This document shows, in pieces, positions 6,123 to 43,737 of a stretch of DNA of 64,000 nucleotides. The notes under the pieces are model-generated. The model was given only the letters and a program-made list of their open reading frames with translations, searched no databases and had not been told where the DNA came from. A program made the position numbers and the translations under genes. Source of the DNA: Ruminococcus sp. UBA4240 (GTDB lineage Bacteria > Bacillota > Clostridia > Oscillospirales > Ruminococcaceae); assembly GCA_002395525.1 (NCBI GenBank), contig DGXE01000024.1, positions 18,692 through 82,691 on the forward strand, given 5' to 3'. The first letter of the stretch is position 1. The number at the start of each line of letters is the position of its first letter.

Positions 6123-7301
6123 TTATGAATTCATCTTTGCCTTGTAGTCTTCCTTCAGCTTTGCAAGGCGCTTGGAATCCTCCGTGCGCTTTGCCCTTGC
6201 CTCCTCCTGTATCTTCTTTGTCTCCTCTATGCCGGATACGATGGTAGCCCATGTCTTTTCAAGGGTCTCCACCTGGATGGAGTTGCCGTTGGCGAGCCTT
6301 GTGGTGAGCTTGGTCTGTTCCACGGTGTTTGTGGCGTTCTTGAGCAGCAGCTCATTGGTCTTGTCATCAAGTGTCTTCATAGCCTCAGCCTGTATCCTCT
6401 GGCGCTTTAACATGACAGCCTGTGCAAGGGACTGCTTGAACACGGGCATGGTTATGATGAATGCGGAATTTATCTTGCGCATAAGATTTACGTTGGAGAA
6501 TTCCATGGATTTGAGCATGGGTACGGTCTGCATCGCCACATTCTCTGCGATCTTCAGATCCATTACACGCTGCTCCAGTATGGAGCGGGACTGTTCAAGA
6601 GCCTGCAGATCCATAGCGGCTGTGCCGGGATCCTCGCCTGCATCCACCTTTGCACGGTACTCCGCAATGTAGGTGTCAAGCTCGGTGCACGCCTGCTCCC
6701 CTGCCATGATGTAGCGCAGGAGCTGCTTGTAGTAGTCGATGTTGGCGTTGTACATGATCTCCAGCTTCTGGTTGGACTGGCCTATCTCGTTCTCGTACTT
6801 TTTCAGCTGGATGTATATCTTGTCCACATGGTCGCCCATGGTGTTGTACTTTGCAAGTATCTTGTCAAGGGACTTGCGTATGCTTGCAAGAAAGCCCCTC
6901 TTTTCCTCGGTGGAGAGCTCCTTTGCATCAAACTGAGCCATTATGGTGCCCAGCTCCTGCAGCAGCACGCTTGAATCGTCGATCTGTGTCATATCCATGG
7001 ATTTGAGCACCTGATCGGAGGCCTTGGATATCTCCTCTGCCACCTCGTTGCCGAAGGTAACGATGGTGTTGGGGTCGTTTACATTGATGGTGGAAACCAG
7101 CTTGTTCACCTCATCGGATGTGATAAGTTCGTTCTCCAGCTTCTGCTTCGTGGCAGTCATGGAGAAGGTGTTGGGGTCTCCTACATTGATGTTATAGGTC
7201 ATAGGTGCGGGGGCAGCTGCTGCCTGTACTTCAACAGGCTCTGCGGTGTTTGTCTCCTGCATTTGCTCTGCGGGTGTGAACTGAATGGGCATTGCTATCA
7301 T
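6123..7301 (-). CDS. telA: TelA-family toxic anion resistance protein
   Basis: 392 aa, largely helical or coiled. The segment KYNTMGDHVDKIYIQLKKYENEIGQSNQKLEIMYNANIDYYKQLLRYIMAGEQ matches the conserved TelA/KlaA core as I recall it (YI.AGE). It is paired with a YceG-like gene as in B. subtilis yceG-yceH. Confidence 0.7.
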   Translation of the reverse strand: MIAMPIQFTPAEQMQETNTAEPVEVQAAAAPAPMTYNINVGDPNTFSMTATKQKLENELITSDEVNKLVSTINVNDPNTIVTFGNEVAEEISKASDQVLKSMDMTQIDDSSVLLQELGTIMAQFDAKELSTEEKRGFLASIRKSLDKILAKYNTMGDHVDKIYIQLKKYENEIGQSNQKLEIMYNANIDYYKQLLRYIMAGEQACTELDTYIAEYRAKVDAGEDPGTAAMDLQALEQSRSILEQRVMDLKIAENVAMQTVPMLKSMEFSNVNLMRKINSAFIITMPVFKQSLAQAVMLKRQRIQAEAMKTLDDKTNELLLKNATNTVEQTKLTTRLANGNSIQVETLEKTWATIVSGIEETKKIQEEARAKRTEDSKRLAKLKEDYKAKMNS

Positions 7302-7321
7302 CCTTTCCTTTTTTCCGTTTT

Positions 7322-8890
7322 TCAGAATAGCTTCTTGAAGAGAAAGCTCTTTTTATGGGAGCGGGGTTTCGTGGGTATCTTCATTCTGGGTACGCTGCGT
7401 ATGGGTGCGCCGAACACAGGCTCCCCGATGGTGTGTGTCTCAAACGCCTTTTCGGAGATGTGCGTTTCAAGATCCCGGTAGCAGGTGGGGCAGAAGACCA
7501 GTATGTCAAAGCCCAGGTAGGACAGCATAAGGGTCTGTGTACACTGCAGCTTTGAGAATGGGTCCTCTATGGGGTCGGCGATGATGACCTTGGGTATTGT
7601 CTTGGTGAAGTCGTAGCTCTGCAGCAGCTGCAATATCTCACGGTTGAGGTTGAGGGCTACATACATGGTAAAGTCCACCAGCTCCTGTTCGCTGTCCATA
7701 AGGAGCATACCGTCATTTATCATGGCCTGCGCCTTTTCAAATATGAGCCTCTGCAAATGACCGGGGAGGAAGTTGTATCGGTTTAAGGGGGATCTCATCA
7801 GCTCGTCTATGAGCAGCTGCTTGCCCCTGTGGAAGCGGGCATATATCCTTGACTGGCTGATATACAGGTTTTTGAGGGATACCGCCTTTACCTGGAAATA
7901 GGTCTCCGGGGTCAGCATCCTCTTCACAAGCTCCCAGTAGGCCTTTATATCTCCCCCGGGGACACCCTCCACCTTGGCGAATATGACAGGCACCGTCACC
8001 ACGTCGTCCTTTACGGCAAAGCCCGTGCGGTACTTTGCCTCCTCGTCCCACAGCAGGTCTATCTCCTCGTAGGTGGTGGCAAGGACGGCGGCGTTCATGC
8101 GCTCGAACTGATTGGAGCGGAACATTGTGTCGCTGCCGGTGTACAGCATCTCATCAAGCTCTTTCTGGGCATTGTAGGCGATGGTGTTTATCTTCGCCTT
8201 GACGGGTGCCTTCGGGAAGGGCCTTACAGCAGCCGTCTTCCCCAGGCTCTCCTTCTGGAGCTTGTCGGAGAAGGGGCATTTCTCAAACATATCAAGGGCT
8301 GTGTCATCCGGGGATATACACAGCACGTCAAAGCCGCAGCGGGCAGCATAGCACAGAAAGAGGGTGTCCTCGCTGTTGGGTATGCCGTAGTACATGATGA
8401 GGGGTATCTTGTCGGTTATGGTGCCTACTGCTGCGGAGATGAAATTCATCCTCTCCACCAGGGACAGCCCCACATTCAGCTTGTCCGTGGGGACAGCCGT
8501 CAGCATTTCCCCAAGGGCAGTCTGGGCTATGAAGCGGCGCTCCTCATTGTCTATCTCGATGCGCCCGCACAGCCCGGATATAATGGCGGCATCTCCCTCC
8601 ACCCCGGAAAAGATGGGGTCAAGGTCGAACCTCCCGGGGACAGCTATGGGCAGGTCGATAAAGGCAAAGGGCTTCCCCGACTTGGTTATGTCGCTTTTGA
8701 GCTCATAGAGGAAATTGTCGTATCTGTCGGGATTCTCCAGTGTGCCTGTGAGCAGCAGGAAATATACGGGGATAAGCTCCCTTTTTGTGAAATGTCCGCC
8801 TCTGGCATAGAGCCTGACGGAATGCTCCTGGCAGATGTCCTGCCCGAGGTGCGTTATATCAGCATTTATCTGTTCAACTAAACGAGCCAT
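7322..8890 (-). CDS. YceG-like protein (partner of TelA)
   Basis: 522 aa, immediately upstream of and co-oriented with telA. Size and position match B. subtilis YceG. No catalytic motif was recognised by eye. Confidence 0.5.
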   Translation of the reverse strand: MARLVEQINADITHLGQDICQEHSVRLYARGGHFTKRELIPVYFLLLTGTLENPDRYDNFLYELKSDITKSGKPFAFIDLPIAVPGRFDLDPIFSGVEGDAAIISGLCGRIEIDNEERRFIAQTALGEMLTAVPTDKLNVGLSLVERMNFISAAVGTITDKIPLIMYYGIPNSEDTLFLCYAARCGFDVLCISPDDTALDMFEKCPFSDKLQKESLGKTAAVRPFPKAPVKAKINTIAYNAQKELDEMLYTGSDTMFRSNQFERMNAAVLATTYEEIDLLWDEEAKYRTGFAVKDDVVTVPVIFAKVEGVPGGDIKAYWELVKRMLTPETYFQVKAVSLKNLYISQSRIYARFHRGKQLLIDELMRSPLNRYNFLPGHLQRLIFEKAQAMINDGMLLMDSEQELVDFTMYVALNLNREILQLLQSYDFTKTIPKVIIADPIEDPFSKLQCTQTLMLSYLGFDILVFCPTCYRDLETHISEKAFETHTIGEPVFGAPIRSVPRMKIPTKPRSHKKSFLFKKLF

Positions 8891-9911: not shown

Positions 9912-10004
9912 TTATGTCAGCTTCTGATACATCTTCATAAGCTCCGCTACTATCTCGCTTTCGGTCATGTCGGGCTTGAAGCCGTATTGGCTGTTTATGC
10001 TCAT
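9912..10004 (-). CDS. 30-aa ORF translationally coupled to the S-subunit gene (MSINSQYGFKPDMTESEIVAELMKMYQKLT)
   Basis: The ATG overlaps the TGA of the specificity gene (ATGA). Found by manual translation because it is too short for the ORF track. It could be a gene remnant. Confidence 0.25.
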   Translation of the reverse strand: MSINSQYGFKPDMTESEIVAELMKMYQKLT

Positions 10005-11176
10005 TCACCCGCTACTTTTTTCATAGTCTCGATCACTTTATCTTTATATCTTACTACATCTGCAATAACAACCTTTTCCATAGCACGGATATATCGTTCC
10101 ATATAATCAAAATCAGGTGTTCCGTCTGATTTGATGGGAATAGTAATAAAACATTCTTTGATTCTGTCCCATGTCGCCTTCTTTTCATACGAAAAACGCT
10201 CTTTTGTTAATTTTTCAATACAACGTGCAAGATATAAAAGACTATGTTCAGTAACATCATCAAATGTAGGTTGTATAAGATAAGCATCCCATAAAACTGC
10301 GGTTGCTTGGGGTTGAACATATACTTTGCCCGTTGCAACTGCTCCGTTCTGAATAACATCTATACACATACTCTGAGTGTTCCAATCTTCTTTTCTACCA
10401 TAGAACATGATTCCATTATCGCCTAATTTTGCGTTTATCAGAGGAATACAAAACTCGTCTGTAGGTATTGAAGAAGTATCTTTTCGCTTATCAAAATCTG
10501 CTTTTTTACACTTTGCTTCTACTTTATCAAACAGTTCACTTATCAATATATCTGTAAACTCGACCTTTTCAGATAATACTTTCTTATCATCTTCGGTCAT
10601 TTCATAATCATTCAGACCTGTAGCCTGTAAATACGCATCCAACTCTGTGATACGGTCATGCTCCAACTCTGTGATACGGTCATGCTCCAACTCTGTGATG
10701 CGGTCACGCATATACTGCCAATCAATATCATCGACTGTGTATTCGTGGTCAGGATTAGGGTTTTCAATGACAGGAAGTTCGATTATAGTATTATTCACTC
10801 TTGGCACGAATTCTCTAACAAGATAACTCTGATAATACGCACTATGCTTATTCAATACGCTGATAAAAAATAATGCAAGAGTTTCATCAAAATTGACAAA
10901 TTTAGGAATAAGAGTCTTTGTGAACTGACCCGCATAAAAATCGTGAGTCATATAGTGAAATTTCATACTAATCATTCCAACAGCAAGACTATTACCTGTT
11001 ATCTTGTGGTCTTCATCTAAATATTCAACATATCCGAGAATTCCATTATTATTTTCTGTTCTTGTAAAATACGGATATTGAGCATCTTTGGAAAATGTAA
11101 AATTCTCCTTATCTAACTGAGGATTGTTAATTACATCGAACAAATCGCTTATGTAAAATGTTTTATTCATCAGCAC
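10001..11176 (-). CDS. HsdS-like DNA specificity subunit with two target-recognition domains (BcgI-B-like)
   Basis: 391 aa. The two-TRD architecture has a central helical spacer containing the DRITELEH x3 repeat. Overlaps the upstream methylase gene by 14 nt. Confidence 0.7.
   Translation of the reverse strand: MLMNKTFYISDLFDVINNPQLDKENFTFSKDAQYPYFTRTENNNGILGYVEYLDEDHKITGNSLAVGMISMKFHYMTHDFYAGQFTKTLIPKFVNFDETLALFFISVLNKHSAYYQSYLVREFVPRVNNTIIELPVIENPNPDHEYTVDDIDWQYMRDRITELEHDRITELEHDRITELDAYLQATGLNDYEMTEDDKKVLSEKVEFTDILISELFDKVEAKCKKADFDKRKDTSSIPTDEFCIPLINAKLGDNGIMFYGRKEDWNTQSMCIDVIQNGAVATGKVYVQPQATAVLWDAYLIQPTFDDVTEHSLLYLARCIEKLTKERFSYEKKATWDRIKECFITIPIKSDGTPDFDYMERYIRAMEKVVIADVVRYKDKVIETMKKVAGE
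10638..10709. repeat. 24-bp tandem repeat x3 inside the specificity gene
   Basis: TCCAACTCTGTGATACGGTCATGC occurs at 10638-10661 and 10662-10685 as perfect copies. The third copy at 10686-10709 has 2 mismatches. It encodes (H/R)DRITELE x3. Confidence 0.95.
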
Positions 11177-13181
11177 TCACCTGACCATTCAGAATAGCAG
11201 ACACTTTCCATGCCAGATAATCAGCAACGGTTTTCTTGAAATCCTCTTCAGTCGGTGTAGTATCAATCTTCTTATGCTGATTGAATGTCCAGTCATCACC
11301 ATTCAGAGTGATAGTGTCCTTGATAACCTTACCATTGGACTCAGTATAGTAATCCGTCTTCGGCTTCTTACCAAGGCAGATAGCAACTACTTCGTCATAA
11401 CGCTCTAATGCGTGGTCTGTATTACGCAGATTTACTTCCTGTGTGGACTTCTTACGATTCTGTCTTGAATACCCGTCTTCCGAGAAATCAATGAATGTTA
11501 CCACATCATCTTCTTCGTGTGGGCGGTTTACTTTAAACAGATATATGGCAGTCTGTACAGATGACTTACCGCTGAACAGATCAGCAGGCATACGTATACT
11601 TGCAAGCAGGGTGTTTCTTTTTAACAGTCTTTGTGAGTATACATCGCCCTGACCGCTGCCGGCATTTTCCTGTATCAGAACCGCACCATATCCTTTTTCC
11701 ATTCTTGATAATGCCTCATCAACGAAGATAAGACCTTTGCCCTGTGCTGAATAAGGCGGGTTCAAAAGGAATACATTTGCAGGAAATTCCTGCTTATCAA
11801 TCTCTTTATGAGAGTCACCACAGATAACCTGTGAAGAACCATCACCCATCAGTATCATATTAAGGACGGCAAGGATATAGATATTACCGAGGATCTCGAT
11901 GCCGAGAAGCTGCTTTGATTTAATATTATCAATCTTTTCAGCAAGAGCATCTTTATCCTTGATTTTCGACTTTGCATCGGCGATCATCAGATCCATACCT
12001 GATACAAGGAATCCTGATGAACCCATACAGGTATCCCATACGAATGAATCCATATCTGTTCTACAGATACGAGCCATCAGATTTGTGACGAAACGAGGAG
12101 TGAGGACTACATCATTAAGTCGGTCATTATCAATAGCTACCCAGTCGTTGAGGGAATTGAGTATCTTGCCTGTAAAGTCAAGATGAATATTGCTTTCAAG
12201 AAGCGGCAGTATCTCATTCTTAATCTGCTTATAAACAGATTTGATGATACTTTCGCCTTTGTTCGGTTTCCAAAGATTACGCTTATCAAAAACAGGTTTC
12301 AGATAATCTACAACCATTTTGATTTTATCATCGGAACATTTCTTTTTACGAAGAAATGATTTAGTACGAGCAATAATCTTTGTACCATCATTATCATCAG
12401 TATCATCATTACTGTCAAAATCATCAACTTCCAAAGGCTTAACGCCTTCAGTAGTAAGACCTGCCATGATAAGACCGCAGAAAAAATACAGTTTATCATT
12501 TGTGGAAAGCAGATTTTTAATTTCATTATCATCGTAGATACGCTGATGAATATCTTTTATGCTCTTTTCAAGAAGTTCCTCTTTGCTGCGCTTTAACTTT
12601 TCAAGTTCAGCATCCGTAAGATTAAGAGTATCGAGCATAGCGAAGAAATCATCAATATTCCTGTCTGCCATCATTACAAAATCGAAATCTTTGATTTCCT
12701 TCGGAATACCATTATTCTTCTGTGATACATAATAAGCCTTGATCTCGGGATCAGATATGATTCCATTTTCACCGACAGTTGTTCCGTTGATACCAACAAT
12801 AATGACTTCTTTATATGTACCTTCTGCAAGAATAGCATTGCCATAATGCAAAGCGCCATTGACTGCAAAATTTACAACGGCACTATATGGATTCTTGCCG
12901 CCTGATACAAGTTCAATGTCACCATTCTTTGTCAGTTTCTCCAGTTTTCCTTTAGAGCCTTTTGCTTCGGTCATAACAGGAATATCCCTGCGTGTTTTGT
13001 TCTGCAAAAGTATCTTTATATCGGGATAGTTGTTTCCACCATTTCCTGATTTTGAGTCAGCATTTTTAAGAGCATAGTCAATAGAACGATTGATGGATTC
13101 GGTCTTTCCGTAATGTCTGATTTTCAGGTTGTCAAGTTCTGCCTTGTAATATTCCTCAACTTTTTCTTCAACACTTGCCAT
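11163..13181 (-). CDS. fused PD-(D/E)xK nuclease-like domain plus gamma-class N6-adenine DNA methyltransferase (BcgI-A-like Type IIB RM subunit)
   Basis: 672 aa. Motif I is FVWDTCMGSSGFLV and motif IV is LLNPPYSAQG. The N-terminal 180 aa or so carry P53-D54...E72-A-K74 (YPDIKILL...VMTEAKG). No HsdR is present in the window. Confidence 0.6.
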   Translation of the reverse strand: MASVEEKVEEYYKAELDNLKIRHYGKTESINRSIDYALKNADSKSGNGGNNYPDIKILLQNKTRRDIPVMTEAKGSKGKLEKLTKNGDIELVSGGKNPYSAVVNFAVNGALHYGNAILAEGTYKEVIIVGINGTTVGENGIISDPEIKAYYVSQKNNGIPKEIKDFDFVMMADRNIDDFFAMLDTLNLTDAELEKLKRSKEELLEKSIKDIHQRIYDDNEIKNLLSTNDKLYFFCGLIMAGLTTEGVKPLEVDDFDSNDDTDDNDGTKIIARTKSFLRKKKCSDDKIKMVVDYLKPVFDKRNLWKPNKGESIIKSVYKQIKNEILPLLESNIHLDFTGKILNSLNDWVAIDNDRLNDVVLTPRFVTNLMARICRTDMDSFVWDTCMGSSGFLVSGMDLMIADAKSKIKDKDALAEKIDNIKSKQLLGIEILGNIYILAVLNMILMGDGSSQVICGDSHKEIDKQEFPANVFLLNPPYSAQGKGLIFVDEALSRMEKGYGAVLIQENAGSGQGDVYSQRLLKRNTLLASIRMPADLFSGKSSVQTAIYLFKVNRPHEEDDVVTFIDFSEDGYSRQNRKKSTQEVNLRNTDHALERYDEVVAICLGKKPKTDYYTESNGKVIKDTITLNGDDWTFNQHKKIDTTPTEEDFKKTVADYLAWKVSAILNGQVSADE

Positions 13182-13224
13182 AATATCGATCCCTTTCGCT
13201 AAAGTGGAGAAACCTCCTTATTAC

Positions 13225-13253
13225 ATTATAGCACATAATTGTGGGAATTTCAA
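13225..13253 (-). promoter_or_regulatory. sigma-A type promoter for the R-M operon
   Basis: The minus strand reads TTGAAA (13253-13248), 17-nt spacer, TATAAT (13230-13225). An AAGGAGG RBS lies downstream. Confidence 0.6.
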
Positions 13254-13265
13254 CTGATTAATAGT

Positions 13266-13296
13266 GAAAAGAAAACCGCCTGCATTTGCAGGCGGT
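13266..13296 (-). terminator. rho-independent terminator after nadB
   Basis: ACCGCCTGCA / TGCAGGCGGT stem, followed on the minus strand by TTTTCTTTTC. Confidence 0.7.
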
Positions 13297-13310
13297 ACAG
13301 CTTGTATTTA

Positions 13311-14762
13311 TTATAATGTTTCCTTCAGCACGATGTATGCCACCGTAGCAAGGGACTTTGCCTCCACATAGTCACGGTCGATGATGTAGTTCCCCTTTTC
13401 AAGGGTGTTCTTTATCTCGCAGACCTGTTCAAAGCCCTCCACAGCCGCCTGCTTGTCGGGAATGACAAAGTAGGCTCTCTGCATGATGTGGCGTATCCTT
13501 GTGCGCAGTCCTGTGGGGATGTGCTCCGCATTTTCCGGCTGTGTGAAGGTGTATTCCGGCACGGTCACATCAGGGTCATATTTCTCTGCAATGTCCTCTG
13601 CGGCACGTCTGCCGAATACAAGCGCCTCCAGCAGGGAATTGGATGCAAGGCGGTTATTGCCGTGAACTCCCGTGCAGGAGCATTCGCCTACCGCATAGAG
13701 CCCCTCAATGTCAGTGCGGGCATAGGTGTCAACGGCTATGCCCCCCATGAGGTAGTGCTGGCAGGGGTATATGGGGATAAGGTCATGCCCCATGTTGATG
13801 CCCTGTGTCAACAGGAACTCGAATATCATGGGGAAGCGCTGATGCAGGAACTCCTCTCCCATGTAGCGTATGTCAAGGAAGAATTCATCGCTGCCTGTGC
13901 GCTTGCTTTCAAGCATGATGGAGCGGGACACCACATCACGGGGAGCAAGCTCCAGGCGGTCATCGTACCTGTCCATGAACCGCTCTTTGTTGCAGTTGAG
14001 CAGATACGCACCCTCGCCTCTCACGCTCTCGGAGATAAGGAAGCATTCCCTTGAATGTTTGTCCGCATAGGCGGTGGGGTGGAACTGTATGTAGGACAGA
14101 TCCTTTATCGTCGCCCCCAGTGCATAGGCGGCGGTGATGCCGTCACCTGTGGCAATGGCGGAGTTGGTGGTGTAGTCGTATACACGGCCTATGCCGCCTG
14201 TGGCAAGCACCATGAAGCGGGAGGTGAAGGTGATATGCTCCCCGTCTTTCAGCACATCCACAGCAAAGCCGCTGCCGTTCCTCTCCAGACGGCACATAAG
14301 GGCAAAGTCCAGCATAGTCACATTGGGGAGCTGCTCCACAGTCTCCCTGAGCACCTTTGTTATCCGTGCCCCGGTGGAATCCCTGTAATGGAATATCCTG
14401 CGCTTTGTGTGGCCGCCCTCCAGGGTGCGGTCAAGCTCCCCTGTCTTGTCACGGTCAAAGTCAACTCCCAGCTGCAGCAGATGCTCTATCTCCTCTGCTG
14501 CACGGGTGACCAGCACCTGTACTGCGGCAGGGTCGTTCTTGAAGCCCCCCGCAACAAAGGTGTCGTTGGTGTGTATGGCGGTGGTGTCATCGTCAACGGG
14601 CTTGTAGACAGCCGCAATGCCCCCCTGTGCCAGGTGGGAGTTGCAAAGCTCCTTTTCCCGTTTGCATATGAGCAGCACTTTAAGGTGTGAGGGCAGGGAA
14701 AGGGCGGTGTAAAGACCCGCTGCACCTGCCCCTGCGATTATGACGTCGTAATTTGTATCCAT
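13311..14762 (-). CDS. nadB: L-aspartate oxidase
   Basis: FAD-binding N-terminus DVIIAGAGAAGLYTAL, succinate dehydrogenase/fumarate reductase-type flavoprotein fold, about 480 aa. The start at 14762 is preferred (GAAGGA RBS). The ORF track start is 14780. Confidence 0.8.
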   Translation of the reverse strand: MDTNYDVIIAGAGAAGLYTALSLPSHLKVLLICKREKELCNSHLAQGGIAAVYKPVDDDTTAIHTNDTFVAGGFKNDPAAVQVLVTRAAEEIEHLLQLGVDFDRDKTGELDRTLEGGHTKRRIFHYRDSTGARITKVLRETVEQLPNVTMLDFALMCRLERNGSGFAVDVLKDGEHITFTSRFMVLATGGIGRVYDYTTNSAIATGDGITAAYALGATIKDLSYIQFHPTAYADKHSRECFLISESVRGEGAYLLNCNKERFMDRYDDRLELAPRDVVSRSIMLESKRTGSDEFFLDIRYMGEEFLHQRFPMIFEFLLTQGINMGHDLIPIYPCQHYLMGGIAVDTYARTDIEGLYAVGECSCTGVHGNNRLASNSLLEALVFGRRAAEDIAEKYDPDVTVPEYTFTQPENAEHIPTGLRTRIRHIMQRAYFVIPDKQAAVEGFEQVCEIKNTLEKGNYIIDRDYVEAKSLATVAYIVLKETL

Positions 14763-39555: not shown

Positions 39556-39578
39556 GGCGGGAAGCAAGGGCAGAAAAC

Positions 39579-39617
39579 AGCCATCTCATCCATATGGTGA
39601 GATGGCTTGATTTTTTG
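39579..39617 (+). terminator. rho-independent terminator
   Basis: AGCCATCTCA / TGAGATGGCT stem followed by TGATTTTTTG. Confidence 0.75.
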
Positions 39618-39820
39618 TGCGGTTTAAGATTGGTTTAAGGTTCGTGTGCTATTCTCATAGTCAAAGGGTGACCCCCCACCCTTTGATAGTGATATCATCT
39701 TTTTCCTTTTTTCCTTTTTTCCTTTTTCTCCCCCATGAAGCGGCCGGGCATCACAGGATGCTGCGGCTGCTTTATTTTTGCAGACTCAAGGCAGAAAGAG
39801 GAGAAAAAGTATGCTTGCAA

Positions 39821-40625
39821 TTGCGGAAATAAAGCAGGAAAGAGGTGGCAAACCAATATCAAATACCAGGTGTAGAGGCTTATTTTACCCAAAGCTATCA
39901 AAAACTGCCAATTTCACGGACGATAGAGAACATTACTCATTAAGCCCAAGGAAAATGGTGCGTATACAAGCCATTCATAGTGTTCCCGTGAAATTGGGGG
40001 CATTCGCGAAAACAAAGCAAGCAAAGAGGAAATAAAGCTATATCGAATGCATTTGCGGAAATAAAGCAAGCAAAGAGGAAGCAAAGCAATATCGAACGCC
40101 TTTGCGAAAATAAAACAGGAAAAGAGGGAGTAAAGCAACGTCGAATGCATTTGCGGAAATAAAGCAGGAAAGAGGTGGCAAACCAATATCAAATACCAAG
40201 TGTAGAAGTTTATTTTACCCAAAGCCATCAAAAACTGCCAATTTCACGGAGTAGGAGGATTATACTTGCCATAGACTAATAAGAAAATGGGGAGAAATTA
40301 AACAATCAATACTTCACCAGCAGTGAAATTGGGGGCATTCGCAAAAACAAAGCAAGCAAAGAGGTGGCAAATCAATATCAAATACCAGGTGTAGAAGTTT
40401 ATTTTACCCAAAGCCATCAAAAACTGCCAATTTCACGGACGATAGAGAACATTATTCTCATTAAGCCCAAGGAAATTGGTGCGTATATTCAAGCCATTCA
40501 TAATGTTCCCGTGAAATTGGGGGCATTCGCGGAAATAAAGCAAGCAAAGAGAAAACAAAGCTATATCGAATGCATTTGCGGAAATAAAGCAAGCAAAGAG
40601 GAAACAAAGCAATATCGAACGCCAT
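39821..40625. repeat. nested noncoding repeat array (100-bp unit A x3, 88-bp unit B x2, degenerate tandem units of about 49 bp, three conserved long-loop hairpins)
   Basis: Unit A lies at 39821-39920, 40151-40250 and (partial) 40361-40439. Unit B lies at 39921-40008 and 40440-40531. CCAATTTCACGG / CCGTGAAATTGG inverted pairs lie at 39908/39986, 40238/40323 and 40427/40509. Confidence 0.9.
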
Positions 40626-40662
40626 TGTAACCAAATATTGGCAAAAAAATGCCCGTAAACAC

Positions 40663-40691
40663 TTGAAATGCCCCTGCTTGTGTGCTATAAT
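40663..40691 (+). promoter_or_regulatory. sigma-A type promoter of the 40742 gene
   Basis: TTGAAA (40663-40668), 17-nt spacer, TATAAT (40686-40691). Confidence 0.6.
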
Positions 40692-40741
40692 CAAAATAAG
40701 GATGATACCACCTCGCAAAAAGGAAAAAGGAGTGATTTTGA

Positions 40742-42721
40742 ATGAAAAACGCAACAGCAAAAAGAGCGGCAGCCGCTCTTGCAGCTCTGCTCATGACTGT
40801 GTCCGCAGGTACGGGGGTACTTGCCACAGAGTACTATTATGAGCCTACACACCTGGCGGGCTACTACTACAACAGCAAAACAGGCTTCTGGTACGATGAC
40901 TACAACCAGGCAGTAGCTGCGGCTATGGATCTGGGGGGCACGGATGCCGATGTGCATTACATAAAGCCGGCAGTTGATTCAAGCTCGGTGTGCAATGCCA
41001 CATATCAGTGGTACAACGGCAACACCAAAAAGTATTACCGCACCGAGACGGATGCCTGGAACGCAGATATACAGGCTGAGACCTACAATGCATGGGAGCG
41101 CCTCAATGTTGATTCTTCCACTAAGGTGAGTGCAAACTATCCCTGGTACAATTCCAAGACTAACAGATACTACAGATCCCAGTCCGATGCGGCAAAGGCC
41201 TCCGGAGGGGACTATTCCGGCGTTGTCTATGCCTTTGACGACACCACCTACAATACCACCTGCACTGCGGATTTCCCCTGGTACAACACCTATACCAACA
41301 GGTACTACAAGACCCAGTCCGCCGCAGCTCAGGCTGATACAAGGGGCACTGTCTACAATGCGTGGACCAACAGCGACTATTCCGCCAATGTAAGCTCCAC
41401 CTACCCCTGGTACAATACTGCCACAGGCAGATACTACCGCACGGAGCAGGCCGCAAGATCCGCATCTGCCGGAGGCACTGTCACCTATGCGTACAGCGCT
41501 GCCACCTCCAACAGGGCAAGCGCCACATATCCCTGGTACAGTGCGCTGACAAAGCTCTACTACAAGACCTATCAGGCAGCCCTTGCCGCATCCGGCAACA
41601 ACGATGCCTATGTATCACAGCAGTACACTGCCACATCAAAGAGTGCAAGCTCCACCTATCCCTGGTACAGCTCCTACACCAACCTGTACTACAAGACCAA
41701 GGAAGATGCCGTGGCTGCATCCCTTTACAGCGAGGGCTACGTATCCTACGCCTATTACCAGAGCTCAAAGAGCGCCAGCGCTACCTATCCCTGGTACAGC
41801 AACATGACAGGGCTGTACTACAAGTCCTATTCGGATGCCCTCAACGCCTCCGGCGGCAGGGAATCCGCAGTTTCACAGAAGTATTTTGCCACATCCAATT
41901 CCGTGAGCCAGACCTATCCCTGGTACTCATCCTACACGAAGAAGTACTACAAGACCCAGAACGATGCCATCAACGCTTCAAACGGCAACGCAGGCTATGT
42001 TTCCTACGCATACAGCAATGTGGCATACTCCAACAGTGTAAGCAAGACCTATCCCTGGTACAGCAGCGTTACAAGGCGCTACTACAAGACCTATGATGAT
42101 GCCCTTTCCGTATCCAACGGCAATCCTTCCTATGTAAGCATGGCATACAGCTCAGGCACATCCTCAACGACCACACGCACAACCACCTCCGTATCCTCCG
42201 GCACGCCCTATATCAACGGCCTCAAGAGCTACAACGGCTGGACAAAGGTAGCATCCTACCTGAGAGGACATACGGGCACCATATATGTGCGCATGAACGG
42301 GGCAACATCCGTTCCCTCCAGTGTATTCTCCGCAATGAAGGGACGCAACATCACCGCCGTGTTCATACTTTCAAACGGCATAAGATGGACAGTAAACGGC
42401 AGGAATGTTGGCACAGCAAGGACTGTTGACGTTTACTCCGCCTCCACAAAGGCCATACCTTCGAGCGCTGTACGCAAGGTATCCTACGGCTCGGTGGGCA
42501 CAGCACAGGTGCTTGCAGGCAGCCCTGATACATCCTTTGGCTTTACGGGCAAGATAACCGTAAAGCTGAACAAGTCCCGTGCAGGCAGGAGAGTAGTAGT
42601 TTACCGCTACAGCACCGTAACACGCAAGCTGTACAGCAACTCCACCACATCTGTTTCCTCCACAGGTCATGTGACCTTCTCCGCATCAAAGGGCGGCTAT
42701 TATCTCATAGTCATAAAGTAA
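40742..42721 (+). CDS. secreted protein with 9-10 YPWY(N/S)xxTxxYY(K/R)T repeats and a C-terminal beta-rich domain
   Basis: 659 aa. Signal peptide MKNATAKRAAAALAALLMTVSAGTGVLA. Repeats have a period of about 42 aa from about aa 85 to 470. A Ser/Thr linker follows, then a domain of about 170 aa of unknown type. Confidence 0.8.
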   Translation: MKNATAKRAAAALAALLMTVSAGTGVLATEYYYEPTHLAGYYYNSKTGFWYDDYNQAVAAAMDLGGTDADVHYIKPAVDSSSVCNATYQWYNGNTKKYYRTETDAWNADIQAETYNAWERLNVDSSTKVSANYPWYNSKTNRYYRSQSDAAKASGGDYSGVVYAFDDTTYNTTCTADFPWYNTYTNRYYKTQSAAAQADTRGTVYNAWTNSDYSANVSSTYPWYNTATGRYYRTEQAARSASAGGTVTYAYSAATSNRASATYPWYSALTKLYYKTYQAALAASGNNDAYVSQQYTATSKSASSTYPWYSSYTNLYYKTKEDAVAASLYSEGYVSYAYYQSSKSASATYPWYSNMTGLYYKSYSDALNASGGRESAVSQKYFATSNSVSQTYPWYSSYTKKYYKTQNDAINASNGNAGYVSYAYSNVAYSNSVSKTYPWYSSVTRRYYKTYDDALSVSNGNPSYVSMAYSSGTSSTTTRTTTSVSSGTPYINGLKSYNGWTKVASYLRGHTGTIYVRMNGATSVPSSVFSAMKGRNITAVFILSNGIRWTVNGRNVGTARTVDVYSASTKAIPSSAVRKVSYGSVGTAQVLAGSPDTSFGFTGKITVKLNKSRAGRRVVVYRYSTVTRKLYSNSTTSVSSTGHVTFSASKGGYYLIVIK

Positions 42722-43011: not shown

Positions 43012-43737
43012 ATGAAATTCGATAAGTTTGCAGGACTGGCTGCAGCCGCTCTGGCCGTATCACTTCTTACCACCGGCGTAAGCGCTCAGGGCAACAGCAA
43101 GTACATTGAAGAGAGGACCGCCGGCAAGGACTACTTCATGACCGTAAACAGCTCAGATGATTCCATCGCCGCATGGTGCAAGGATTCCGGCGTTGATGTT
43201 ACCGAGGTTTACGGCTGCAGATTCTATATCACCGTAAATGATCCTTCACAGGGCTACGGCGGCGCTATCGGCATCAATGCCACCGCCAACAACTGGGAGG
43301 CTCACGAGTGGGGCAATGACGGTGCAGGCAAGGCTATCACCTCTGACGGCTCTACCATTGAGTTCATGTCAGATTCCCCTGCATTCAAGGCTGACGATGA
43401 GTACGCCAACTTCTTCCTCCAGAACTGGTGGGGCGATTTCAGCGTTGATGACTGCGACCTGCTTGACAAGGACGGCAACGTTCTCGAGGCTGTAGGCGCT
43501 GCTGCTGAGGAGGCTCCCGCTGAGGAGGCTGTTGAGGAAGTTGTTGAGGAAGAGGTAGTTGAAGAGGCTGCTCCCGCTGAGGAAGCTGTTGTTGAAGAGG
43601 CTCCTGCCGCTGAGGAAGCTGCTCCCGCCGCTGTTGCAGATACCACAGCTCCCAAGACCGGCAATGCATCCGCTGCTGCCGTTGCAGTTGTTATGATAGC
43701 TGCTGCAGGCGCTATGGCTCTTTCCAAGAGAAAGTAA
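43012..43737 (+). CDS. cell-wall-anchored surface protein with an xPKTG sorting signal
   Basis: 241 aa. Signal peptide, a globular domain of about 130 aa, an acidic (E/A/V/P) linker, then TAPKTGN plus a hydrophobic stretch plus KRK. Confidence 0.7.
   Translation: MKFDKFAGLAAAALAVSLLTTGVSAQGNSKYIEERTAGKDYFMTVNSSDDSIAAWCKDSGVDVTEVYGCRFYITVNDPSQGYGGAIGINATANNWEAHEWGNDGAGKAITSDGSTIEFMSDSPAFKADDEYANFFLQNWWGDFSVDDCDLLDKDGNVLEAVGAAAEEAPAEEAVEEVVEEEVVEEAAPAEEAVVEEAPAAEEAAPAAVADTTAPKTGNASAAAVAVVMIAAAGAMALSKRK

Follow-up and report, generated by a model that had tools for sequence, protein, structure and literature searches.

What is the 1.1-kb gap that separates an operon terminator from the promoter of a secreted-protein gene in Ruminococcus sp. 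UBA4240? The gap lies in a 64,000-nt stretch of contig DGXE01000024.1 (positions 18,692 to 82,691 of the forward strand; hereafter the window, numbered from its first letter). An earlier note, made from the letters alone, had described it as a highly organised, non-coding array of nested repeats and hairpins. Reading of the sequence between 39300 and 41100, together with repeat finders, confirmed the gap and placed every listed element where it had been reported or a few bases off; the terminator and the promoter that delimit the gap were likewise recovered by terminator and promoter scans (Table 1). The repeats are far above chance, and the region is non-coding and as organised as the note had claimed. 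The array fills the spacer between the terminator and the promoter, and its make-up differs between strains of one uncultured Oscillospiraceae species. As to its nature, the best-supported reading, to which we give an even chance, is that 39811-40620 is a lineage-specific, strain-hypervariable composite minisatellite, that is, a variable-number tandem repeat (VNTR) with higher-order structure, confined to this locus.

The basic building block of the array is a purine-rich unit of 49 bp, here called R (consensus GCATTTGCGGAAATAAAGCAAGCAAAGAGGAAGCAAAGCAATATCGAAT), whose conserved core, AAAGCAAGCAAAGAGG, occurs five times in the 64 kb, always within the array, against 0.00 expected. Tandem Repeats Finder (TRF) detected period-49 tandems at 40000-40194 (4.0 copies, 79% matches) and at 40523-40619 (2.0 copies, 93%). 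The note had distinguished units A, B and a 49-bp unit as separate families. All three are present, but they are not separate, since unit A opens with an R-type unit: its first 49 nt are a variant of R. The array is thus a single continuous minisatellite of R units, in which modules are embedded. A palindromic module of ~100 bp takes the place of the last ~10 nt in some R units, and some of these modules additionally carry an insertion of ~44 nt, the A-tail. The two copies of unit B (39921-40008 and 40440-40531) are homologous, with indels, and a 283-nt match at 93% is found within the array. R units also vary by position, those directly following the right inverted repeat of a module reading GCATTCGC as opposed to GCATTTGC. 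Across the five alleles described below, 22 R-type units match the 49-nt consensus. Judged by eye, the segment that follows the last R units (40621-40655) is a degenerate R-like remnant, and both edges of the array seem to decay into such sequence.

Each palindromic module is made up of a 12-nt leader, a left inverted repeat (IR-L, CCAATTTCACGG), a centre of 64-71 nt, a right inverted repeat (IR-R, C[C/A]GTGAAATTGG) and GG. Its left border reads ..CAAAGC-[TGC/CAT]CAAAAAC[A/T]G, followed by IR-L. In the window the arms pair at 39908-39919/39986-39997, 40238-40249/40321-40332 and 40427-40438/40509-40520, with a spacing of 66-71 nt. The second pair has one mismatch, which leaves a 10-bp perfect core; the other two are perfect over 12 bp. 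When up to one mismatch is allowed, the 12-mer occurs six times in the 64 kb, always within the array, against 0.24 expected, and none of 100 shuffled sequences reached six.

The minus strand of the array is free of stop codons, so that gene callers sometimes call open reading frames (ORFs) in it. A search of 5.8 billion proteins with the minus-strand translation of 39914-40231, and then with a profile, returned four such spurious ORFs, lying on contigs L014, L015, L016 and L026. All four contigs carry the same locus from other strains: their flanks are 92-99% identical to the window, and they share with it the end of the upstream gene, the terminators, the promoter and the start of the downstream gene, which encodes a protein of 659 aa. 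To describe the alleles, we denote a palindromic module by H followed by its centre type (1, 2 or C) and preceded by its left-flank type (A or short). The window allele then reads A-H1, R R R, A-H2, A-H1, R R (three modules); L015, short-H1, R, short-HC, A-H1, R R (three modules); L016, short-HC, R R, A-HC, R (two modules); L026, short-H1, R R (a single module); and L014, A-H1, R, short-HC... (at least two modules, truncated). The polymorphism in copy number and architecture that the note had proposed is therefore present in sister strains, with one to three modules and differing numbers of R units. The contigs of the four other alleles come from short-read metagenomes and measure 635-1566 bp, one of them at ~2.7x coverage; their array junctions are trustworthy, several recurring in independent samples, and their copy numbers may be collapsed. 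Short-read assemblies of two further samples stop exactly at the array edges. Samples in which the species is present are ERZ1756110, ERZ27256925, ERZ27256935, ERZ12302853, JGI 3300031760, SRR873595 and SRR5322612.

Comparison of the alleles points to the way in which such diversity arises. Centres fall into three types, with identities of 91-99% inside a type and of 51-65% from type to type, the forward similarity between types being marginal (12-35 of 500 shuffles score as well). Type 2 was seen once, in the window allele, with a long left flank. Long and short left flanks each pair with more than one centre type, and so do the IR-R variants. Such a mosaic of flanks, centres and IR-R variants is the mark that recombination and conversion leave among repeats. 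In a comparison of the window with L026 (39200-41400), synonymous divergence is 0.034 in the upstream gene and 0.17 in the downstream gene, a jump that suggests a recombination breakpoint at or near the array. We envisage that unequal homologous recombination, replication slippage and gene conversion between units maintain and reshuffle the array, moving left flanks, centres and R blocks and shifting the module number between one and three from strain to strain. Heterologous centres would persist as distinct "cassettes" where conversion tracts stop at the border of homology, and the sharp boundaries between arms and centres would thus arise without a dedicated enzyme.

The note had also entertained a recombination array that controls the adjacent gene. 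In an invertible switch or mini-shufflon, a site-specific recombinase acting at the alternating 12-mers would flip centres or R blocks and so switch the downstream gene. The arms are indeed invariant and alternate in orientation, and these 10-12 bp inverted repeats, upstream of a gene for a surface or secreted protein, are within the described range of 10-40 nt (PMC11892184). However, all 10 complete modules and all R blocks of the five alleles point the same way, and in none of the alleles is a centre or inter-module block inverted. Nor are the centre types related as reverse complements (287-367 of 500 shuffles reach as high a score). No recombinase gene was found in a Pfam scan of picked genes between ~24 and 48 kb. 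The promoter of the gene starts 143 bp downstream of the last arm, outside the segments bounded by inverted repeats, and the centres contain no promoter-like site. Moreover, centres of 64-71 bp are very short for synapsis. Altogether, the context agrees with that of an inverton and three defining features (both orientations, a nearby invertase and an internal promoter) fail, which makes such a switch very improbable.

The arms are the best-conserved part of the modules across old module subfamilies. IR-L is identical in all 10 complete modules and in one partial module from the five alleles; the 10 complete modules also agree throughout the 10-nt core of IR-R, and one other IR-R position is C in five and A in five. 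Of 24 columns in the arms, 1 is variable; of 52 in the immediately adjacent flanks, 19 are (Fisher p = 0.002, with non-independence ignored). The type-1 centres, with 10 of 70 columns varying, do not differ significantly from the arms. The statement that the stem is kept though the loop differs thus holds across centre types. The stem covariation that had been proposed as a check is another matter: the sole arm variant (C to A) disrupts a pair that no second change restores, and no compensatory change was seen in the five alleles, which are too close for a strong test. Conservation of the arms fits selection on pairing and selection on sequence alike. The 12-nt arms are likely to be the functional or structural core of the modules, and they likely act by extruding a hairpin or cruciform or else as a protein recognition sequence. 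We take the arm sequence to resemble parS/NBS half-sites (TTTCACG) and the shufflon sfx core (TGCCAAT).

Protein recognition is at the heart of a further explanation, which we consider unlikely although it deserves some weight. The 12-mers, in both orientations, and/or the R core would be operator-like sites for a regulator or nucleoid protein; the bound protein would set the expression of the secreted-protein gene, and the copy number of the sites would tune the response. The 12-mers comprise the columns with the strongest conservation and have no compensatory change, which fits sequence recognition over pairing. Furthermore, the array is AT-rich (38% vs 53% GC) and is positioned at -45 to -850 from a near-consensus promoter that would otherwise be constitutive. 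Against this, the motif occurs nowhere else in ~80 kb, no regulator gene adjoins the locus, homologues of the gene have a similar promoter and no array, and an allele with a single module exists.

The downstream gene itself provides part of this evidence. Its 659-aa product contains about ten repeats of ~43 aa, YPWY(N/S)..T..YY(K/R)T, and a C-terminal domain of ~170 aa, with no match to a Pfam or NCBIfam family. A protein search gave 23 matches, none of them functionally named and two labelled as coming from metagenome-assembled genomes of Oscillospiraceae; one paralogue (P0005) is present in the same sample. The regions upstream of the homologues and of this paralogue measure 170-240 bp and are without the array. 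At least one array-free homologue (P0002; L005-L007) has a promoter similar to that at 40663-40691, a 28-nt stretch being common to the two; the -10 region is likewise shared with one homologue. The array is thus not needed to express the 659-aa family. In the other alleles of the locus, the promoter is conserved.

Would the array give rise to a product? Coding potential was rejected. The small ORFs change from one copy to the next: those of the plus strand measure 32, 34 and 88 aa and those of the minus strand 68, 105 and 40 aa. Between alleles they are unstable as well. A period of 49 bp keeps no reading frame, which supports the non-coding status that the note had argued for, and the centre lengths found among alleles (64, 66, 68 and 70 nt) differ by numbers that are not multiples of 3. 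An array of non-coding RNA genes, or one long structured or sponge RNA, is improbable. On the minus strand, the promoter-like sites in the A units would drive a CU-rich RNA with CCUCUUU motifs; on the plus strand, the RNA would be purine-rich with many AGAGG/GGA motifs. Three minus-strand TTGGCA-18-TAAAAT sites do keep register with the A units, the palindromic modules have better folds than shuffled sequences (z = -2.9 to -3.9), and a CU-rich candidate small RNA lies directly upstream. But these sites, the sole internal promoter-like ones, are copies of one repeat matching 10/12 with an 18-nt spacer, and judging from the allele sequences they are missing from the modules with a short left flank and from L026. 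For type-1 and type-2 modules, a better fold than that of shuffles is bound to follow from the inverted repeat; the type-C module lacks it (z = -1.2). The fold of R units is not significant (z = +0.28), and the three centre types have no common fold beyond the outer stem and no covariation. The fold of the array as a whole has a z of -2.3 for the plus strand and of +0.08 for the minus strand. Searching both strands against Rfam 15 with E up to 10 gave no match, the best candidates having E above 1 and scores far below the gathering scores. A terminator scan found none within the array, and the two terminators upstream shield its plus strand from upstream transcription. The structured-RNA idea of the note thus found no support, and the array would seem to yield no protein and no recognisable structured RNA.

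The distribution of the array bears on its being confined to one locus. No other copy was found with the 10-nt core in the 64-kb window or in a further 15.6 kb of the contig (~80 kb in total). BLASTN of the array region against plasmids and phages gave no match, and viral contigs yielded 0 matches. In all, ~15 billion predicted proteins returned same-locus alleles only. HMMER without filters, run with the stop-free minus-strand translation over 1.84 billion representative proteins, gave two same-locus ORFs and one marginal match (P0028, E = 2.8e-4). The latter is a spurious ORF of 234 aa with a 57-aa period, a different tandem repeat that is probably unrelated to the array. Species-representative genomes scanned with the 20-mer AAAAACTG... 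(AAAAACTGCCAATTTCACGG) gave two single matches in unrelated phyla, about the number expected by chance, a weak negative because the 20-mer is polymorphic (other alleles carry AAAAACAG...). Scans of JGI metagenomes gave 0 matches to the hairpin pattern and nine to the R pattern, none truly similar to the array; these negatives are weak too, since the collection did not return the JGI contig L026, which was later recovered. The lack of copies elsewhere and the compact, array-free upstream regions of the homologues indicate that the array is a recent lineage-specific addition in front of a promoter that is compact elsewhere.

These searches also weigh upon the decayed mobile repeat that the note had listed among its candidates. 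In its most explicit form, the array would consist of composite miniature mobile elements similar to BOX, with the 12-mers as termini, R units as internal modules and centres as DNA between insertions; alternatively, the ~100-bp palindromic module would be a miniature inverted-repeat transposable element inserted into an R array. The order of parts (an end module, a variable number of internal modules of ~45-50 bp, an end module, inverted termini) matches pneumococcal BOX, and so does the length variation between strains (PMC3049150). R units right after IR-R carry position-specific variants (GCATTCGC vs GCATTTGC), as a distinct end module would, and terminal inverted repeats are present, perfect over 12 bp. 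Yet there are no dispersed copies in the 80 kb, in plasmids, phages or viral contigs, and the ~15 billion proteins gave this locus only. There is no target-site duplication: no direct repeat is common to the left flank (..AAAAAC[T/A]G) and the right flank (GGGCATTCGC..). The module stands in place of the last ~10 nt of an R unit rather than interrupting one. If parsed as BOX, the outermost elements are without outer termini in every allele, and the supposed inter-element centres are themselves repeated. Mobile elements of either form are therefore a rather doubtful explanation.

Two other candidates were rejected. An array of clustered regularly interspaced short palindromic repeats (CRISPR) does not fit, as the "spacers" (centres) recur within and between alleles and the "repeats" measure 93 to 240 bp; no cas domains were found among the genes scanned (~24 to 48 kb). 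A replication origin was dismissed because 39.6-40.7 kb contains no DnaA box (up to one mismatch); GC skew was uninformative, with no clear origin or terminus signal.

Of the note's interpretation, the organised non-coding array, its polymorphism and the conservation of the arms have stood, and RNA genes, inversion and a mobile repeat have found no support. Several points weigh against the composite minisatellite. Its 12-mers are invariant across centre types that are ~55% identical, hinting at a specific function that the term minisatellite leaves unnamed, and the array may have a role at the transcript level. Dispersal within the genome was covered over ~80 kb only, and the 20-mer scan of species representatives is weak. 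Repeat collapse or chimeric paths could create or hide modules, making exact copy numbers uncertain; L026 equals L015 minus what lies between the two type-1 modules of the latter, and the loss could be real (a deletion) or a shortcut of the assembly.

If the array is a composite minisatellite, its variation would change the length and content of the AT-rich DNA directly upstream of the near-consensus promoter. It is plausible that the array modulates this strong promoter; if so, the locus would be of the contingency type for a secreted protein, and it could equally be neutral. Hypervariable non-coding arrays beside genes for surface or secreted proteins are a classic route to strain-level phenotypic diversity, and descriptions of them from uncultured Oscillospiraceae of the gut or rumen are scarce. 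Should the array or the small-RNA tract described below alter expression, the locus would be a tractable contingency locus; if neutral, the array would be just an unusually elaborate minisatellite. The array could also serve as a strain-typing marker for the species, and it is a practical assembly hazard, since independent short-read assemblies break at its edges.

The segment that precedes the array (39644-39782) is a candidate self-contained unit, separate from the array, that would encode a CU-rich small RNA of ~120 nt. It opens with a putative extended -10 element whose hexamer is TATTAT in the four other alleles; having no -35, the element was not called by a simple scanner. The 10-bp hairpin and the simple tract that the note had placed before the array were both recovered. 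The (UUUUUUCC)n tract varies among the five alleles (3, 3, 2, 2 and 1 copies), the rest of 39644-39782 being conserved. A second strong terminator-like hairpin ends the candidate RNA and insulates the array from upstream transcription. The fold of 39658-39785 has z = -5.6, and Rfam gave no match to the candidate RNA. Its CU tract has 13-nt complementarity to the ribosome binding site (RBS) of the downstream gene. Specific pairing between the two was rejected, as this RBS ranks 641 of 25,588 windows (-17.1 kcal/mol). The best non-self pairing site of the tract in the window is RBS-like (7296-7325, minus strand; -30.4 kcal/mol) and sits just upstream of a TelA-like gene (6123-7301); the CU tract pairs with purine-rich RBS regions in general.

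One could combine both elements into a two-part contingency system for the secreted protein, in which a recombination-prone array, with the 12-mers as recognition sites for a recombinase or regulator, acts along with a CU-rich small RNA carrying a strain-variable tract. We hold this to be a long shot; if true, it would imply cassette-like exchange of the 64-71-nt centres and expression of the YPWY-repeat protein that is heritable yet switchable.

Table 1. Features of the array and its borders (window coordinates)
Feature	Position	Strand	Remarks
Intrinsic terminator of the upstream ABC/MacB-like operon	39579-39617	+	12-bp stem (39579-39607) and T-run
Promoter-like extended -10 element	39644-39657	+	GTGTGCTATTCTCA; resembles the -10 region of the downstream gene, GTGTGCTATAATCA; putative
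Perfect 10-bp hairpin, 6-nt loop	39661-39686	+	TCAAAGGGTG / CACCCTTTGA; kept in all alleles
(TTTTTTCC)n simple-sequence tract	39699-39730	+	8-bp period, 39700-39727 being 3.5 copies; predicted single-stranded
Second strong terminator-like hairpin	39735-39782	+	18 pairs, then TTTATTTTT; stem invariant in five alleles
Composite minisatellite	39811-40620		about nine R-type 49-bp units and three embedded palindromic modules; repeat finders, unit alignment
Unit A (105 nt)	39816-39920; 40146-40250; 40335-40439	+	second copy 95%, third copy 80% identical; repeat finder
R unit of A type with 43-nt A-tail	39816-39907; 40147-40237; 40335-40426	+	
Promoter-like site TTGGCA-18-TAAAAT	39882-39911; 40212-40241; 40401-40430	-	in A-tail and IR-L; 10/12 matches
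Palindromic module 1	39908-39997		IR-L CCAATTTCACGG; type-1 centre, 66 nt; IR-R CCGTGAAATTGG; fold z = -2.9
Three plain R units	40000-40146	+	starts at 40000, 40049 and 40098
Palindromic module 2	40238-40332		IR-L; type-2 centre, 71 nt; IR-R variant CAGTGAAATTGG; fold z = -3.5
Palindromic module 3	40427-40520		IR-L; type-1 centre, 70 nt; IR-R; fold z = -3.9
Two plain R units	40523-40620	+	TRF and unit alignment
Promoter of the downstream gene	40663-40691	+	TTGAAA-17-TATAAT with TG-extended -10; 11/12 matches
Gene for the 659-aa secreted protein	40742-42721	+	signal peptide

As shown in Table 1, the array is bracketed by two terminators upstream and a near-consensus promoter downstream; the first of these terminators is without change in five of five alleles. 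The GC content is ~38% in the array region and ~53% in the flanks. The context is chromosomal. Genes for an ABC permease, a HlyD-like protein and a MacB-like protein lie upstream; the 659-aa signal-peptide protein, a sortase-substrate-like protein of 241 aa, thrC and others follow downstream. The Pfam scan of picked genes (~24 to 48 kb) identified transporter and biosynthetic genes, an AsnC-type regulator and other genes. The 241-aa protein (43012-43737, plus strand) has a signal peptide, an acidic linker rich in Glu, Ala and Val, and a C-terminus composed of an APKTGN motif, a hydrophobic stretch and KRK, which looks like a sortase-type cell-wall sorting signal; neither Pfam nor NCBIfam gave a match to this protein.

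Further away, positions 10000-14000 of the window form a low-GC island (38-43% vs ~53%) that was probably acquired horizontally. It carries type I restriction-modification genes (HsdS-like, 10001-11176; HsdM-like, 11163-13181), which a zeta-toxin/AAA-like gene adjoins. Gene orientation flips at ~33-34.5 kb, genes at 6-33 kb lying mostly on the minus strand and those at 34-64 kb on the plus strand, and recR-ybaB-dnaX lie on the minus strand just past the right end of the window (L027, 12000-20900).

How does the array compare with known systems? Invertons have inverted repeats of 10-40 nt and typically occur in the context of genes for surface or secreted proteins (PMC11892184). The array shares such repeats and such a gene, in a gut-type Firmicute, and unlike invertons it is without orientation polymorphism, a nearby invertase gene or an internal promoter, its segments measuring just 64-71 bp. 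REPINs are scattered over the genome, tens to hundreds of copies of them, and rely on a RAYT (REP-associated tyrosine transposase). The array resembles REPINs and bacterial interspersed mosaic elements in having two short inverted sequences ~70 nt apart, a possible hairpin of ~100 nt and arms more conserved than the centre; it differs in being undispersed, and no RAYT turned up among the annotated genes, although no search was aimed at one. BOX elements (boxA-boxBn-boxC) of S. pneumoniae and S. suis are spread over many loci, are considered mobile, their termini being like those of an insertion sequence, and are reported to affect the expression of genes downstream of them (PMC3049150). They appear to be the closest architectural analogue: both have composite modules, a variable number of internal units of ~45-50 bp, inverted termini able to form a stem-loop, a position upstream of a gene, and a length that varies between strains and grows with module number. 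The dispersal that defines BOX is not seen here, the array being at one locus, with no target duplication and no sequence similarity to anything outside its own species.

Mycobacterial interspersed repetitive unit (MIRU)-type VNTRs are tandem repeats of 40-100 bp that are often co-transcribed between the genes of an operon. Unlike them, the array is a single locus rather than a family of loci, and lies between a terminator and a promoter; its nested palindromic modules and optional 44-nt insert also give it a higher-order structure. Like intergenic VNTRs, it has head-to-tail non-coding units of ~50 bp, strain-variable copy number and unit variants, and concerted evolution. It shows what characterises such loci, namely tandem units in the ~10-100 bp range in non-coding DNA and polymorphism between strains, the latter seen in short-read contigs. 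In conclusion, the array belongs to a known kind, the hypervariable intergenic tandem or composite repeats, rather than to a new system.

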